Source: Myxococcota bacterium (GTDB lineage Bacteria; Myxococcota_A; UBA9042; PHBI01; JAWLBL01). Taken from it: DNA of 64,000 bases. The DNA is taken from positions 96,001 to 160,000 of the forward strand of contig JAWLBL010000004.1 of NCBI GenBank assembly GCA_041687695.1, in the 5' to 3' direction. The notes beneath the pieces were generated by a model, which worked only from the letters and a program-made list of their open reading frames with translations, was not told where the DNA came from and made no database searches. Positions 20,394-27,170 of this stretch are shown here, piece after piece. Every line of letters starts with the position of its first letter. Position 1 is the stretch's first letter. The position numbers were made by a program, and so were the translations under genes.

Positions 20394-21425
20394 GTGAGTC
20401 GCCAGCGCTTGGTCGACCTGCGCTCGGACACGGTGACGCGTCCGACCCTGGGCATGCGCGCCGCGATGGCTCAGGCCGAGGTGGGCGACGTCTGCTTCGG
20501 CGACGACCCGACGGTGACCCGCCTCGAGCGCGCCGTCGCCGAGCGGCTGGGCAAAGAGGCCGCCCTGTTCGTCCCGACCGGGACCATGGCCAACCAAATC
20601 GCCGTCGCGGTCCACACCCGACCCGGCGACGCCGTCCTGCTCGACCGCCGCGCCCACATCGCCCTGTGGGAGGCCGGCGCCTCGGCCGTGCTGGCCGGCG
20701 TCCAGCTGGTCGGCGTCGACTCCGACGACGGCCTGCCCACCCCCGACGCGCTGGCCGCCGCCGTCTACGCCCCCCACGTCAAGGCGCCCCAGCCGCGCCT
20801 GCTCGCCCTCGAGGACACCCACAACGCCGCCGGCGGCCTCGCCCACAACGTCGCCGCGCTGGCCCCGGCCCTCGACTTCGCCCGCCAGCGAGGCCTGGCC
20901 ACCCACCTCGACGGCGCCCGCCTCTTCAACGCCGCCGTCGCGACCGGCGACGACGTGGCCTCCCTCGCCGCCGGCTTCGACACGGTCAGCCTCTGCCTCT
21001 CCAAGGGCCTGGGCGCCCCGGTCGGCTCGCTCCTGGCCGGCCCCCGCGACCTCATCGCCCGCGCCGACGCCTGGCGGCACCGCCTGGGGGGTGGCTGGCG
21101 CCAGGCCGGCGTCCTCGCCGCGGCGGGCCTCCACGCCCTCGACCACCACCCGGCCCGCCTCCCCGAGGACCACGCCCGCGCCCGCGTCCTCGCCGCCGCC
21201 ATGACCCAGGCCGGCGTCGCCCACCCCGTCCACGACGTCCAGACCAACATCGTCTACTTCCACGTCGACCCCGCCTGGGGCACCGCCCAGGCCTTCGCCG
21301 CCGCCCTGGCCGACCGCGGCGTCCTCGTCGGCGCCACCGCCCCCCAGCGCGGCCGCCTGGTCACCCACCTCGACGTCGACGACGCCGCCCTCGCCCGCGC
21401 CAGCGAGGCCCTCGCGGCCCTCTGA
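20394..21425 (+). CDS. ltaE: Low-specificity L-threonine aldolase
   Basis: DLRSDTVTRP, GDDPTV, PTGTMANQ, HLDGARLFNA, CLSKGLGAPVGS, GGGWRQAG. Confidence 0.92.
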   Translation: MSRQRLVDLRSDTVTRPTLGMRAAMAQAEVGDVCFGDDPTVTRLERAVAERLGKEAALFVPTGTMANQIAVAVHTRPGDAVLLDRRAHIALWEAGASAVLAGVQLVGVDSDDGLPTPDALAAAVYAPHVKAPQPRLLALEDTHNAAGGLAHNVAALAPALDFARQRGLATHLDGARLFNAAVATGDDVASLAAGFDTVSLCLSKGLGAPVGSLLAGPRDLIARADAWRHRLGGGWRQAGVLAAAGLHALDHHPARLPEDHARARVLAAAMTQAGVAHPVHDVQTNIVYFHVDPAWGTAQAFAAALADRGVLVGATAPQRGRLVTHLDVDDAALARASEALAAL

Positions 21426-21483
21426 GCCGGCCCACCCCGCCGCCTCCAGCGCGAAACTCCACCGCGAGCAGCGTCGGCCGCGC

Positions 21484-21861
21484 TCTTCGATGAAGAATCC
21501 GACGGCCCAGCCCCGCCGAGACGATTCTTCGATGAAGAATCCCGCTGTCGAGCCCCGCCGAGACGATTCTTCAATGAAGAATCCCGCTGTCGAGCCCCGC
21601 CGAGACGATTCTTCAATGAAGAATCCCGCTGTCGAGCCCCGCCGAGACGATTCTTCAATGAAGAATCCCCATGTCGAGCCTCGCGCTGCGGTTTCTTCAT
21701 CCCAGAATCGTCCCCGCCACCCTCGCGCTGCGGTTTCTTCATCCCAGAATCGTCCCCGCCACCCTCGCGCTGCGGTCTCTTCGTTCCAGAATCGTCCCCG
21801 CCACCCTCGCGCTGCGGTCTCTTCGTTCCAGAATCACCCCCGGCACCCTCGCCCTCCGGCC
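21484..21861. repeat. 42-bp tandem array (9 units, two sub-types)
   Basis: TCTTC recurs at 21484, 21526, 21568, 21610, 21652, 21694, 21736, 21778 and 21820. Core TCTTC-N5-AGAATC is conserved in all units. Confidence 0.95.
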
Positions 21862-21864
21862 ACC

Positions 21865-23160
21865 TCATCGAAGGCTCGTCCCGTCGCCGGCCGCCCCCGG
21901 CTTTCCAACGGCCCCCTCCGCGCCCTCGGTCCACCCGCCCCGGGGCGGAGCCGTCCGCGTCCGCCGCTCGGCCATCTTCCGCGCCACGAACCCGGCACCC
22001 AGCTCCGTCCGGGCGACGAACAGGTTGTGCGCCTGACACACGACCCGAACGTTCGCGATGGAGTGAGCCCCGCCCTTCGCGAACGCCTCGTCGTGGTGCA
22101 GCTCCAGCCGCCGCGTCTCGGTGCACCGGCCCCCCGCGCCCACGAACGTGCACCGCAACCCGTCCCGCGCGACCACGGCCCGCCTGACCTCCGCCGGAAT
22201 GGCCCGCCCCCGCCCGCCAACCAGCTCGCCCGACCCGCTGGCCTGCCCGACCGACTCACCGGCCTGCTCGACCGACCCGCCGGCCTGCTCGACCGACTCA
22301 CCGGCCTGCTCGACCGACTCACCGGCCTGCTCGACCGACTCACCGGCCCGTTCCGCTGGGTTCGTCATGGCCGCGCTCTCGGCCTGCTCGACCGCCTTGG
22401 AGACCGCCTTCTTCGAAGGTCGCTTGGCCCCCACCCCGAACCGCTGCTTCTTCTTCGCGGCCAGGAACACATCCAGCGCCATCTCCAGCAGCGTCTCGTA
22501 GTCGCCTGACGCGACCCGATGCCCCGAGATCGCCATCGCCTCCTCCAGCTTGGCGGCCACCCGCGCCCCGACGGTCACCTGCACCCGATACCGAGCCTCC
22601 GAGAGCGGCTCGACCCGATGCTTCGGCTTCGGTCGCTCCAGCGCCAACTCGCTCTCTCGCGCCTTCGGCTCGGCCAGGGTCTGCTTCGCCGCCTCGTCCC
22701 GCCCGCCCCGGGGCGGCGGCAGCTTCACCACCCGCGCCGGCACGTCCGGCCGCGGCGCCCACCGCGCCACCAGCTCCACCAGCTCCCGCTTGCTCTTCCC
22801 AGCCGCCTCGGCCAGCCGCTCCACGGCGTTCCCTTCCCCGAGATGCGGTCCGATGACCCTCATCCCGCTCAGGCTCAGCCGTCCGTCGGCCAGCATCGCC
22901 CCCATCTCGGGCCACCGCCTCACCCACTCGACGGCCTTCACGTAGTTGTAGGCCTTGTCTTCTCCGAAGCCCCACCGGTCGCGGCACCACGCGAACAGCG
23001 ACGCGCTGCCGTCGCCCAGATGAAGCTCCCGCGCCTCCACCTCGGCCAGGTGGACGACCAGGTTGGCCGTCGTCCGCCGCTCCAGGTGTACCAGCTCACC
23101 GACCCGCCCCAGCAGCCGCTCGTCGGACAACTTCTCCAGCATCTTCAGCCCCTTGCGCAT
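21865..23160 (-). CDS. HNH endonuclease with DUF222-like N-terminal helical region
   Basis: N-terminal LSDERLL...ERRTTANLVVHLAEVEARELH...SLFAWC...AAGKSKRE. C-terminal IPAEVRRAVVARDGLRC...C...LELHH...GG...N...CQAHN. Start may be 23142. Confidence 0.88.
   Translation of the reverse strand: MRKGLKMLEKLSDERLLGRVGELVHLERRTTANLVVHLAEVEARELHLGDGSASLFAWCRDRWGFGEDKAYNYVKAVEWVRRWPEMGAMLADGRLSLSGMRVIGPHLGEGNAVERLAEAAGKSKRELVELVARWAPRPDVPARVVKLPPPRGGRDEAAKQTLAEPKARESELALERPKPKHRVEPLSEARYRVQVTVGARVAAKLEEAMAISGHRVASGDYETLLEMALDVFLAAKKKQRFGVGAKRPSKKAVSKAVEQAESAAMTNPAERAGESVEQAGESVEQAGESVEQAGGSVEQAGESVGQASGSGELVGGRGRAIPAEVRRAVVARDGLRCTFVGAGGRCTETRRLELHHDEAFAKGGAHSIANVRVVCQAHNLFVARTELGAGFVARKMAERRTRTAPPRGGWTEGAEGAVGKPGAAGDGTSLR
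22230..22348. repeat. 21-bp tandem repeat inside the HNH gene, encoding (ESVEQAG)n
   Basis: CCGACTCACCGGCCTGCTCGA-like units at 22230, 22251, 22272, 22293, 22314 and 22335 (partial). Confidence 0.9.
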
Positions 23161-23415
23161 CGCCCACCCCTCCCAATCGAGGCCCGAAGCATACCACGGG
23201 GGTCCCGGCCCCCTCGGAACGCCCCCTGGACGCCCGTTCAGCGCCTCCGGACGACGCGCGACGACCCTCTCCCCGGATCAGCGCGTCCTGGAGCCCGCCA
23301 GGCCGCTCCCAGGGCCCGTCTACCTCCGACCTCCGATCGCCCGCCGAGGGCTCCAAGAATCCGTCAACAACTATTTCGCCCCTCGTCCCCTCTCGAGGTC
23401 GATTTTGCCCCCTCC

Positions 23416-23910
23416 CGCCCCGGGACGACGAGCCGCCCGGGATCTCCGCCCCGGGACGGCGACCCGCCCCGGGGGTCTCCGCCCCGGGACGACGACCGGC
23501 CCCTGGGCTCTCCGCCCCGGGACGACGCCCCGCCCCTGGGATCTCCGCCCCGGGACGACGACCGGCCCCTGGGATCTCCGCCCCGGAACTACGACCAGCT
23601 ACCGCCCCGGGACGACGCCCGCTCGTACTGTCGCCCCGGAACTACGACCAGCTACCGCCCCGGGACGACGCCCGCTCGTACTGTCGCCCCGGAACTACGA
23701 CCAGCTCCCGCCCCGGGACGACGCCCGCTCGTACTGTCGCCCCGGAACTTCAACCAGCGCTCCCGCCCCGGAACTACGACCAGCTACCGCCCCGGGACGA
23801 CGCCCGCTCGTACTGTCGCCCCGGAACTACGACCAGCTACCGCCCCGGGACGACGCCCGCTCGTACTGTCGCCCCGGAACTTCAACCAGCGCTCCCGCCC
23901 CGGGACGACG
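23416..23910. repeat. Higher-order tandem array of 18 CGCCCCGG-cored units (24-33 bp)
   Basis: Units start at 23416, 23447, 23480, 23513, 23546, 23579, 23603, 23632, 23656, 23685, 23709, 23738, 23764, 23788, 23817, 23841, 23870 and 23896. Confidence 0.95.
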
Positions 23911-24040
23911 ATCCGCGCACCCAACCACAGCCTGCCTCCACCTCCGCTCCCACCCATAACCTCAGACTATCACGCCCCCATGCCGCACCCCCGCTCACCC
24001 CAGCCCCTCGCGACCCAGTCCGCGCCTCGGGACGCGCAGC

Positions 24041-24186
24041 GGCCCGGACGCCCCCGTCCGGGCCGATATCAGCTCTCCCAGCCGCAGCGGAGGCCGGGGT
24101 CAAGGGCTTTGTCGTCCGCGAGGAATTGGCCGGCCGAAGGACGGCCAAGGGGGGACAAAGCCCTTGATGCCGGCCGAAGCGGAGGC
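24041..24186. other. Structured inverted-repeat element (short hairpin plus long nested hairpin)
   Basis: GGCCCGGACG/CGTCCGGGCC at 24041-24064. TCAAGGGCTTTGTC (24100-24113) pairs with GACAAAGCCCTTGA (24154-24167), with inner TTGGCCG/CGGCCAA and outer GGCCGG/CCGGCC arms. Confidence 0.8.
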
Positions 24187-24202
24187 TACCGCGCCTCCTC
24201 AA

Positions 24203-24343
24203 CCCGCTCGTCCCGCTCGTCCTGCTCGTCCTGCTCGTCCTGCTCGTCCTGCTCGTCCTGCTCGTCCCGCTCGTCCTGCTCGTCCTGCTCGTCCTCCTCG
24301 CCCCTCTTCGTCCTCCTGGTCCTCCTGGTCCTCCTGGTCCTCC
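24203..24343. repeat. 9-bp tandem repeat
   Basis: About 10 copies of CC(T/C)GCTCGT, followed by three copies of CCTCCTGGT. Confidence 0.9.
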
Positions 24344-24574
24344 TCCCCGATAGCGTCCAGCGCCGCCCCCAATCCCCCTCACCCCCCCCCCCGGAATCCC
24401 CACCCCCCACCCACTGTTTCGCCCCCTCGGCCGAACTTCCCGGTGGACTCCACCGCCTGAACGGCCCCAAAGTGCGCCCCGACGCGACCGAGCCTCGCGC
24501 CGCCCCCCAAACGCGGGCCCACCCCTCGCTCCCCACGAGCGCGCCCCCGGCCCGGATCACCTCAGAGCACAGCC

Positions 24575-25495
24575 ATGACCGAACGAGCGTATCGCGCTGG
24601 CTTCGTCGCCATCGTCGGCCGGCCCAACGTGGGCAAGTCGACGCTGATGAACCAGATCGTCGGCGAGAAGATCGCCATCGCCACCCCCAAGCCGCAGACG
24701 ACGCGCGAGCGGATCCGCGGCATCCGCACCTTCGACGACTGGCAGGTCGTCTACGTGGACACGCCCGGCATCCACGAGGCGCGCACGGCCCTGAACAAGT
24801 TCATGGTCGACACCGCCGTCGGGACGCTGTCGGACGTCGACCTCACCTACCTGCTGGTCGACGCGGCGCACATGAACGCCAAGCCCGACCAGGTGCTGGC
24901 CGAGACCGAGCGGGTCGTGGCCGCCATCACCGCCGCGGGCGCGCGCACCTTCCTGGTGGTCAACAAGATCGACCGCCTGAAGGACAAGGCCGCGATGCTG
25001 CCGCTCATCGAGCGGCTGACCGCCCTGTACCCGTTCGACGAGGTGGTGCCCGTCAGCGCCGCGACCGGCGACGGCGTGGCGCAGCTGCTCGAGCTGACGC
25101 GCCCCCACATGCCCGAGGGGCAGGCCCTGTTCCCCGGTGACGAGCTGACCGACCGCTCGATGCGCTTTCTGGCCGCCGAGCTGGTCCGTGAGCAGCTGTT
25201 CATGCAGCTGTCCGACGAGCTGCCCTACCACGTCGCCGTGAACGTCGAGGACTGGCAGGAGCGCGACAACGGCACCGCCGCCATCCACGCGACCATCCAC
25301 GTCGCGCGCGACAGCCACAAGGGCATCGTCATCGGCAAGGGCGGCCAGCGCCTCAAGACCATCGGGCAGAAGGCCCGGCAGAACCTGGAAGACTTCATGC
25401 AGCGCAAGGTCTGGCTCGAGCTGCACGTGCGGGTCGAGGACGACTGGACCGACCGCGCCGCCGCCCTGCGCAAGCTCGGCTACACGGAGAGCTGA
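24575..25495 (+). CDS. era: GTPase Era
   Basis: GFVAIVGRPNVGKSTL, KPQTTR, DTPG, NKID, KH domain with VIGKGG. Confidence 0.97.
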   Translation: MTERAYRAGFVAIVGRPNVGKSTLMNQIVGEKIAIATPKPQTTRERIRGIRTFDDWQVVYVDTPGIHEARTALNKFMVDTAVGTLSDVDLTYLLVDAAHMNAKPDQVLAETERVVAAITAAGARTFLVVNKIDRLKDKAAMLPLIERLTALYPFDEVVPVSAATGDGVAQLLELTRPHMPEGQALFPGDELTDRSMRFLAAELVREQLFMQLSDELPYHVAVNVEDWQERDNGTAAIHATIHVARDSHKGIVIGKGGQRLKTIGQKARQNLEDFMQRKVWLELHVRVEDDWTDRAAALRKLGYTES

Positions 25496-25496
25496 G

Positions 25497-27170
25497 ATGC
25501 CCAGAACCCACCACAGCCACGGCATCAAGCCCATCCTGGCCATCGTCGGCCGCCCCAACGTGGGCAAGTCGACCCTGTTCAACCGCCTGGTCGGCCGCCG
25601 CATCGCCATCGTCCAGGACATGCCGGGCGTCACGCGCGACCGCCACTACGGTGACGGCGACATGCTGGGCCGGCAGTTCATCTGCATCGACACCGGCGGC
25701 TTCGAGCCCGAGACGACCGACGACATGCTGCAGGCGATGCGCCGGCAGGCCCAGGTCGCCATCGAGGAGGCCGACGTCATCATCGCCGTCTTCGACGGGC
25801 GCGCGGGCCTGCTGCCCGCCGACCGCGAGATCACGCGCATGCTGCAGCGGACCGGCAAGCCGGTGCACTACGCGGTCAACAAGATCGACGGCGCGCGCCA
25901 CGAGGCGCTGGCGGCCGAGTTCTGGGAGCTGGGCGTCGACATGATCTGGTCGATCTCGGCCCAGCACGGCGCGGGCGTGCTCGACCTGATGGAGGTGGTC
26001 ATCGAGGACCTGCCCGAGCTGGTCGACGACGTGCCCGAGGACCTGCCCGAGCACAGCCGCATCGCGGTGGTCGGCAAGCCCAACGCCGGCAAGTCGACCC
26101 TCATCAACCGCATGCTGGGCGAGGACCGCCTGCTCGCCAGCGACGTGCCCGGCACGACCCGCGACAGCATCGACACCTGGCTCGAGCTGCCGCCGGACCG
26201 GCAGGCGATCGCCGCCGCCGAGGCCGCGTTGGCCGAGGCCGAGGTGGCGCTGGCGGCGGGCGACGACGCCGACGAGGACGCGGCCTGGGACGCGCCCGGC
26301 GAGACCGACTTCGAGCTGATCCCGTTCTCGGACGACGAGTGGGAGTCGGGCGAGGCGGCGCAGGGCTGGGAGGACGGCGGCGAGGCCGACTTCGACTGGC
26401 CCGAGGAGGTCGCGGAGGCGGACGCGGCCGAGAGCGACGCGCCGACGGACGAGCAGATCCACGCCGAGCGGCTGGCCGCCCTCGAGCGGGCGCGGCAGCC
26501 GCGGCGCTACCTGCTCATCGACACGGCCGGCGTGCGGCGCCGCAAGTGGATCCGGACGGCGCTCGAGCGGTACAGCATCGTCCAGAGCTTCAAGAGCATC
26601 GACCGGGCCGACGTCGCGCTGCTGATGCTGGACGCGACCAGCGGCGTGACCGACCAGGACGCCAAGCTGGCGGGCCTGGTGCAGGCCAAGGGGCGCGGCG
26701 CCATCATCCTGGTCAACAAGTGGGACGCCGTCCCCGACAAGGACACCTACACGGCGGGCCGCTACGTCAAGGAGCTGCGCGAGGCGCTCAAGTTCATGAG
26801 CTACGCGCCCATCCTGTTCATCTCGGCCCTGTCGGGCCAGCGGGTCCACCGCATCCTGGCGACCGTGGACCGCGTCTCGCACAACCGCGAGCGGCGCGTC
26901 CCGACGGGCGAGCTGAACCGCTTTCTGACCCGGCTGACCCAGAAGTTCCAGCCGCCCAGCCACAAGGGCCGGCGCCTGAACATCTACTACGCGACCCAGG
27001 TGTCGGCCTCGCCGCCGACCTTCCTGCTGGTCGTCAACTACCCCGAGGCCATGCACTTCTCGTACGAGCGGTTCCTGCACAACCGCATCCGCGAGCAGTG
27101 GGACTTCGAGGGCACGCCCATCCGCATCGTCCTGCGGCGCGCCCGCCGAGGCGGCCCGGGCCAGGGCTGA
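25497..27170 (+). CDS. der: Ribosome biogenesis GTPase Der (EngA) with a large acidic insertion in GD2
   Basis: Two GTPase domains (GRPNVGKS...DTGG...NKID; GKPNAGKS...DTAG...NKWD) and C-terminal KH-like domain (PPTF...FEGTPI). Confidence 0.96.
   Translation: MPRTHHSHGIKPILAIVGRPNVGKSTLFNRLVGRRIAIVQDMPGVTRDRHYGDGDMLGRQFICIDTGGFEPETTDDMLQAMRRQAQVAIEEADVIIAVFDGRAGLLPADREITRMLQRTGKPVHYAVNKIDGARHEALAAEFWELGVDMIWSISAQHGAGVLDLMEVVIEDLPELVDDVPEDLPEHSRIAVVGKPNAGKSTLINRMLGEDRLLASDVPGTTRDSIDTWLELPPDRQAIAAAEAALAEAEVALAAGDDADEDAAWDAPGETDFELIPFSDDEWESGEAAQGWEDGGEADFDWPEEVAEADAAESDAPTDEQIHAERLAALERARQPRRYLLIDTAGVRRRKWIRTALERYSIVQSFKSIDRADVALLMLDATSGVTDQDAKLAGLVQAKGRGAIILVNKWDAVPDKDTYTAGRYVKELREALKFMSYAPILFISALSGQRVHRILATVDRVSHNRERRVPTGELNRFLTRLTQKFQPPSHKGRRLNIYYATQVSASPPTFLLVVNYPEAMHFSYERFLHNRIREQWDFEGTPIRIVLRRARRGGPGQG

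Follow-up and report, generated by a model that had tools for sequence, protein, structure and literature searches.

A dispersed, palindrome-bounded HNH nuclease element in a Myxococcota genome that probably spreads without a transposase

The 3.1 kb between ltaE and era in the window, a 64,000-nucleotide stretch of a Myxococcota genome, carry an HNH nuclease gene together with tandem arrays and a structured hairpin, and the dispersed element built around this gene (the HNH element) is the subject of the present work. An earlier note, made from the sequence alone, had described the locus, and most of its description was confirmed. The open reading frame (ORF) at 21865-23160 is the sole credible gene from the ltaE stop (21425) to the era start (24575), and its 431-aa protein carries an intact HNH motif (C-x8-C-x8-HH-x13-N-x4-CxxHN). 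The arrays were found as described, with lengths given here as assembled: the second of two 42-bp arrays ends 6 nt from the HNH stop codon, a 21-bp unit is repeated six times inside the ORF (22224-22348), 18 core units lie upstream with the first 255 nt before the ATG, and a 9-bp unit is repeated 15.4 times at 24206-24345. The fold of the nested hairpin at 24080-24187 (z -4.3) was equalled by none of 200 shuffles. The + strand was said to be strongly C-rich throughout the island, and its skew of -0.29 is indeed rare, being matched by 0.6% of 2498 genome windows, although ltaE also has a skew of -0.20 without belonging to the island. All 22 paralogous ORFs in the genome are G-rich on the coding strand. 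The features are as follows, with the ends of the element named along the direction of the gene.

20394..21425, + strand: ltaE, left host flank
21484..21684 and 21679..21859, no strand: two related 42-bp arrays, outside the element and part of a separate genome-wide class of 41-44-bp arrays
21865..23160, - strand: HNH nuclease ORF, 431 aa, of which the final ~20 codons run past the right boundary of the element
21932..21951, no strand: right-end palindrome (core 21936-21947); homology with other copies ends a few bases beyond
22000..22194, - strand: HNH (His-Me finger) domain, residues 323-387, motif intact
22224..22348, - strand: 21-bp coding repeat with a 7-residue unit, in the low-confidence linker between the ribbon-helix-helix and HNH domains, variable or absent in paralogues
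22438..22617, - strand: predicted ribbon-helix-helix, residues 182-241, a likely dimerisation domain (matches to 3no7 and NikR)
22704..22715, no strand: palindrome core in the ORF linker, with a core at the equivalent place in 20 of 22 copies
22744..23085, - strand: predicted ParB/KorB/Noc-type helix-turn-helix domain, residues 26-139, with fold matches giving moderate support
23188..23193, - strand: extended -10-like box, a sequence pattern
23362..23367, - strand: -35-like box, 168 nt from the -10-like box
23415..23911, no strand: left-end array in which a palindrome core made of two unlike half-sites, together with a variable spacer, is repeated as 18 units; probable binding sites
24028..24190, + strand: terminal structured module of 163 nt, with a GNA-triloop hairpin, an 11-bp hairpin, a long stem and a G.A zipper
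24206..24345, + strand: 9-bp C-rich tandem tail just outside the module, with a unit specific to the window copy
24575..25495, + strand: era, right host flank

The locus was compared with relatives, and G000 here denotes the genome holding the window, G011, G217 and G222 other genomes, and C-numbers contigs. ltaE was seen at 13 of 17 era loci of relatives and adjoins era in 12 of these 13, another gene intervening in one; the neighbourhood check that had been proposed thus found the HNH gene in none of the 13. Because relatives keep ltaE and era adjacent and none of them has the HNH gene, the 3.1 kb is an insertion. This insertion (21426-24574) parts era and der from their usual upstream gene. 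At locus L157 of G011, another gene of ~600 nt, which we take to resemble a Uma2-type nuclease, sits between ltaE and era.

The HNH gene is a member of a dispersed multicopy family. G000 contains 22 near-full-length paralogues with 51-76% identity, and the HNH motif is intact in all 22. The ratios of nonsynonymous to synonymous substitution (dN/dS) for the three protein domains were 0.41, 0.15 and 0.21, based on 21 copies and leaving out one 5'-truncated copy. ORF-less units of the form module-array-module are present at C7, C27 and C3, and one solo module at C26. Tandem arrays are enriched around the family, as had been predicted: the 1.2% of the genome that is no more than 1.8 kb from a family gene contains 53 of 571 strong arrays, an 8.4-fold density. 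Many family copies sit at contig ends or beside N gaps. A profile search returned 10,801 clusters (50% identity) at E up to 1e-30, and at least 17 of 201 genomes of the phylum were positive when nine candidates were scored per genome. The family reaches 8-22 copies per genome. No match to phages or plasmids was found with one query each.

Presence and absence were compared between the congeneric genomes G217 and G222. Eight G217 copies were examined: three are missing from G222, two are common to both genomes, one site is rearranged, and unrelated DNA occupies the remaining two. The three clean empty sites in G222 have gaps of 63, 25 and 134 nt, and the 63-nt site keeps a solo palindrome of the family type with a different inner sequence. 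Together with the 22 copies and the insertion in a conserved gene pair, this presence/absence pattern upheld the proposal of a selfish multicopy element. Just beside an HNH element in G222 (L171:3173-4456, on C24), a 1.28-kb insertion sequence was seen, which has ~40 near-identical copies in G222 and many in G217.

The family is marked by a spacer-less palindrome of 20 bp. In G000, a 12-bp palindromic core underlies the units of the arrays, which are placed between module and gene and are inverted at the two ends of the element; the core also lies inside the ORF. The window copy has the array and module at its left end, and its right end lies a few bases past the palindrome, 65 nt before the stop codon. 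In G217, where the copies have no module, the homology shared among copies begins at the upstream palindrome and stops just past the C-terminal one, and in G011 (20 contigs) the same design is found with a different palindrome. For a family-wide census with a strict 20-bp test, 142 loci were reduced by 9 duplicates and 12 with short coverage; among the remaining 121, which are dominated by few lineages and are not independent, 97 have the palindrome, which is located upstream (about -230 to -430), in the linker, or downstream of the HNH domain. Its density is 0.58 per kb near the gene versus 0.17 in distal flanks. Similar spacer-less, parS-like palindromes were detected at seven of nine DUF222-type loci examined. 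A scan for recurrent palindromes with 12-mers was no better than its control.

The inner sequence of the palindrome varies and its symmetry is kept. When sites were chosen by AAC-N14-GTT alone, 6-7 of the 7 inner positions paired in 78/110 sites versus 0/21 in flanks; 36 different half-sites were represented, and pairing to this degree was seen in 60 of the 72 sites at the expected positions. The centre is always pyrimidine-purine (CG 43, CA 14, TG 6, TA 2), and between sites within one element 26 of 50 differing positions are altered on both sides. Such maintenance of symmetry with only one protein present suggests either copying of one half from its partner or a need for extrusion of the site. 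In G000, a clade of seven copies mostly uses one half-site twice and the larger clade mostly joins two unlike half-sites, and the two clades differ in the recognition helix as well; this covariation is a single contrast on the tree and is suggestive only. The upstream array is the element's own palindrome site, amplified. Of the earlier proposal that the arrays are binding sites or RNA cofactors, the part on binding sites is retained as probable for the upstream array; the part on RNA cofactors is not supported.

The better-folding strand of the 163-nt terminal module is the one with its 3' end directed outward from the element, and the other strand has GTAG at the outer end. An upstream module in the orientation opposite to the gene was detected in 19 of the 22 G000 copies, the other three lying less than 500 nt from a contig end. 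An inverted downstream module is present in seven copies, and five have modules at both ends; about nine, including the window copy, lack a right-hand module and terminate there at a palindrome or an array. The modules of G000 have a mean identity of 89%, 10 of 44 consensus pairs show at least two Watson-Crick types, and the G.A zipper is conserved. Triloops of the c-GNA-g type, with all four middle bases, are biased to one strand (0.98 vs 0.10 per module in G000, 3.23 vs 0.15 in G011). The module of G011 is unrelated, ~260 nt long, inverted, and located inside the palindromes. On the folding strand, the module is located 3' to the palindromes in G000 and G011 alike, which would be expected if a nick at the palindromes displaced it. 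GNA hairpins are not enriched across the family (0.5-0.8 per kb close to the gene, 0.6-0.7 in flanking DNA), and the modules are thus lineage-specific. GNA loops of this kind are characteristic of single-stranded DNA: in the telomere 3' overhangs of Streptomyces, sheared G:A pairs close such loops in a series of hairpins (PMC5449611).

The tails outside the modules are also distinctive. All 39 module tails are C-skewed and 25 of 39 contain tandem repeats, compared with 52 of 600 and 41 of 467 controls (about 9%), the units being mostly different from each other. In some tails the end of the module itself is repeated, and a few continue into neighbouring family arrays. The suggestion that repeated cutting and repair had produced local duplications was borne out in part, namely for local duplication as the origin of the 9-bp array.

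The predicted model of the protein consists of a helical N-domain, a strand-helix-helix middle domain and the HNH domain, joined by low-confidence linkers. Modelled alone, the N-domain reached a predicted local distance difference test (pLDDT) score of 95.7, and four of its top five structural matches were ParB, KorB or Spo0J: KorB with Z 7.0 (root-mean-square deviation 3.6, 97 residues aligned), ParB on parS with Z 7.0 (4.5, 101), KorB on its operator with Z 6.3 and Spo0J with Z 5.8. The top six matches in Foldseek were all Noc/ParB. The first 142 residues are entirely helical, and their alignment to ParB/Noc is confined to the DNA-binding part; a ParB-type N-terminal CTPase domain is absent and the protein has no ParBc match in Pfam. 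The evidence is consistent, with moderate support, with a ParB-type helix-turn-helix. The middle domain matches 3no7, which we take to be a ribbon-helix-helix ParB, at E 0.016, and a NikR match was obtained in 1 of 86 family members; a homodimer prediction for residues 176-250 scored 0.41 against a mark of 0.42.

The assignment of the gene to the DUF222/13E12 type could be kept only as a distant relationship. In Pfam the window protein gave a weak HNH match and no DUF222 match, none of 86 family members passed the cut-off of PF02720, and the best weak match in the genome had 21.2 bits against the cut-off of 24.4. By alignment with hhalign, on the other hand, the family matched a DUF222-positive HNH protein with 98.6% probability and E 9.5e-16, the homology being carried by the N-domain and HNH while the middle ribbon-helix-helix region aligned poorly, and in the ESM Atlas it scored 0.93 to a cluster with 12% DUF222. 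DDE, HUH, serine and tyrosine recombinase domains were not found in the element protein or family members.

Upstream of the gene, the -35-like and -10-like boxes are separated by 168-169 nt in 21/21 copies of G000, with variable sequence between them. Outside G000 they are 163-176 nt apart in most loci with both, the -10 pattern being present in only 17 of 88 loci. The 270-nt leader has no conserved RNA fold, and a promoter scan gave only weak matches, inside the 42-bp array.

Taken together, we judge it more probable than otherwise that the HNH element is a dispersed, palindrome-bounded unit, the only protein of which probably recognises and cleaves the palindromes of the element, with host repair copying the unit without a transposase. 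In the proposed mechanism, a dimer would bind the palindromes through the predicted ParB-type domain, and the HNH domain would nick or cut the DNA there. Strand displacement primed at the nick could expose the module as folded single-stranded DNA, amplify the sites to arrays and make the C-rich tails, and fold-back copying would keep each palindrome symmetric. Host repair synthesis and recombination would then copy the unit to new sites, and arrays, tails, ORF-less derivatives and sometimes a solo site would be left as by-products. The anatomy and the mobility are thus observed and the domains predicted, while binding, cutting and joining are inferred; the joining of the copy to a new site is the least supported step.

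Several observations weigh against this interpretation. No joining or ligating domain was found in the protein. No target-site duplication was recognised, the compared genomes being 83-89% identical; the palindrome is missing at two of the three clean empty sites, and the other five of the eight sites have unrelated DNA (2), a rearrangement (1) or a shared insertion (2). The closest pair of copies in G000 is only 92% identical, so no recent burst is seen. By the strict test, the palindrome is missing in 24 of 121 loci, and outside the elements its site is neither enriched nor depleted. In G000, the two ends of one copy are not regularly closer to each other than to the ends of other copies: the copy's own array ranked first in 2 of 9 comparisons and its own module ranked 3rd-36th of 40. 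Evidence for concerted evolution of the ends is mixed for arrays and absent for modules. For the N-domain, the unrelated Raf1 scores Z 6.0, all Z values are below 8, and the Foldseek matches have E values of 0.8-1.7.

The gene could instead be a host-retained nuclease, restriction-like or acting in abortive infection, which is autoregulated through its palindromes and multiplied passively by recombination and horizontal transfer. Its purifying selection without pseudogenes among the 22 copies is compatible with this explanation, as are McrA as the best fold match of the HNH domain and the lack of a recent burst and of target duplication. Active selfish elements are, however, also expected under purifying selection, and the splitting of a conserved gene pair, the polymorphic presence between congeners, the ORF-less derivatives, and palindromes at the boundaries and inside the gene rather than at the promoter alone make it an unlikely account.

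The module might alternatively be an end like those of repetitive extragenic palindromic (REP) sequences or terminal inverted repeats (TIRs), moved in trans by a RAYT-type HUH transposase, with the HNH gene and its autoregulatory palindromes as cargo. GTAG occurs at both outer ends in most two-ended G000 copies, ORF-less inverted pairs exist and a solo module lies at C26, G000 has 11 Y1 matches and one Y2 match, and RAYT genes may be flanked by long TIRs according to PMC3733652. Against this, neither a core nor any convincing match to the module was found in the 2 kb around the twelve HUH genes (best E 0.015; several at contig ends), the G217 copies are dispersed with palindromes alone, the G011 module is unrelated and lies inside the palindromes, and about nine of 22 G000 copies end on the right without a module. 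We consider this arrangement distinctly unlikely.

An RNA-associated or RNA-guided HNH nuclease of the IscB/HEARO/TIGR kind, using a module or array transcript, appears very improbable. The compensatory changes in 10 of 44 module pairs would suit an RNA, and a weak IscB profile match covers the HNH part only (22.7 bits vs a cut-off of 175). The idea of an RNA cofactor, raised in the earlier note, is not supported: no Rfam match was obtained up to E 1, the leader has no conserved fold, the c-GNA-g triloops lie on one strand only and are of DNA type with a conserved G.A zipper, the module is found in either orientation, most homologues lack it and other lineages have none or an unrelated one, and the array spacers repeat rather than being unique, next to a predicted protein reader of DNA. 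Assembly error, or chance proximity of the arrays to an ordinary gene, is scarcely credible as an explanation, despite the many copies at contig ends or N gaps and the probably correct chance view for the 42-bp arrays, given that the arrays vary from copy to copy, have opposite orientations at the two ends, share one core, and recur in the same design with another palindrome in G011 (20 contigs).

Among known systems, the closest is that of the REP13E12/DUF222-HNH loci (PF02720 + PF01844), which share a homologous protein, dispersed multicopy occurrence and spacer-less palindromes; the present family differs in its palindrome, its additional arrays and terminal modules, and its position below the Pfam threshold. 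REP13E12 is described as lacking a defined function in PMC13061034, and these loci are noted as repetitive in PMC10589994. The HNH element belongs with them to a kind that is known although unexplained, and there is a fair chance that it defines a new mobile-element class. Its protein resembles ParB, KorB and Noc in a predicted, moderately supported helix-turn-helix fold, and the element has several copies of a spacer-less palindrome, as parS and the Noc-binding site (NBS) are, with the CCC-GGG centre of NBS (PMC7383237); but the protein lacks the CTPase domain and is fused to HNH, and the ~20-bp sites are variable inside yet symmetric and lie on a mobile unit. REPtrons, TIRtrons and REPINs likewise have inverted structured ends starting with GTAG (in G000 only) and non-autonomous pairs; here the enclosed gene is HNH and not HUH, and the ends measure 163 nt instead of 20-40 bp and are lacking in the majority of the family. 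PMC3733652 describes REPs with GTAG and RAYTs flanked by TIRs, with no mention of HNH in that account.

The likeness to Streptomyces telomere overhangs lies in multi-hairpin GNA loops, with the 3' end of the folding strand outward in G000 (PMC5449611 for the telomeres); the HNH element is internal to the chromosome, has no terminal-protein gene, and in G011 its module points inward. IscB/omegaRNA (HEARO) and TIGR-TasH also have an HNH domain beside structured or arrayed non-coding DNA, but no full-length IscB match, Rfam RNA or unique spacers were found here, the spacers recurring within and between units. Free-standing HNH homing endonucleases combine a DNA-binding domain with HNH and spread selfishly by host repair, as here; the copies of the present family are, in contrast, ectopic and not allelic, the presumed site is carried and not disrupted, and no phage match was found.

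It is possible, and advanced only tentatively, that the HNH family and the DUF222/13E12 repeats form an unrecognised class of mobile element, in which a reader derived from ParB is fused to HNH, no transposase is used, sites are regenerated by fold-back synthesis, ORF-less derivatives are mobilised and a split promoter of ~168 nt is employed. No account of the palindrome signature, the element anatomy or the ParB-type fold was found in searches of the open-access literature. A testable mechanism is of interest for a family of this very large size, whose movement lacks an explanation in the literature searched and which has as its nearest named relative REP13E12, described as without a defined function. 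Because the anatomy gives a putative enzyme-site pair, defined ends and empty alleles, the spread of these genes can be tested directly. If the interpretation is correct, it would provide a route of mobility without a transposase, a new use of the ParB fold and compact nucleases reading ~20-bp sites.

The gene, arrays and hairpin are real but are not one system, and the view of the four arrays as a single system was not sustained: the 42-bp arrays lie beyond the right boundary of the element and the 21-bp array encodes a linker that varies among paralogues. The 42-bp arrays in the window resemble an array without an HNH gene at C7:54011-54292, and they probably lie beside the HNH gene by chance. 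In G000 there is a peak of 65 sequence-diverse tandem arrays with periods of 41-44 bp, many not multiples of three (for example C1:411078, C4:252418, C4:290006, C7:54011 and C8:26062). Half of the units have an inverted repeat with arms of at least 6 bp (9% in shuffles), 11 of 76 look coding, and no common gene lies beside them, the widest shared family occurring at only 4 of 76. Arrays of ~42 bp at C10:22486, C31:27319, C40:9339 and C48:5140 adjoin one unannotated family of helical-looking proteins of ~280-330 aa.

Other repeats were observed as well. A 126-bp array with eight parS-like palindromes (C12:175312-176547) lies upstream of a true DUF222 gene at C12:173568-174680. Dispersed intergenic repeats (a ~130-nt unit; 27-bp and 54-58-bp arrays) often cluster with HNH elements, such as near C2:34273, C3:10311, C5:98073, C19:163810 and C48:5140. 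A RAYT-like gene flanked by its own short hairpin repeats occurs at C26:55485, C27:86581 and C42:42283, and repeats of this type recur elsewhere in G000, once directly beside a module. In the window, Der (EngA; 25497-27170) has an acidic insertion of ~100 residues in its second GTPase domain, where relatives show a gap.

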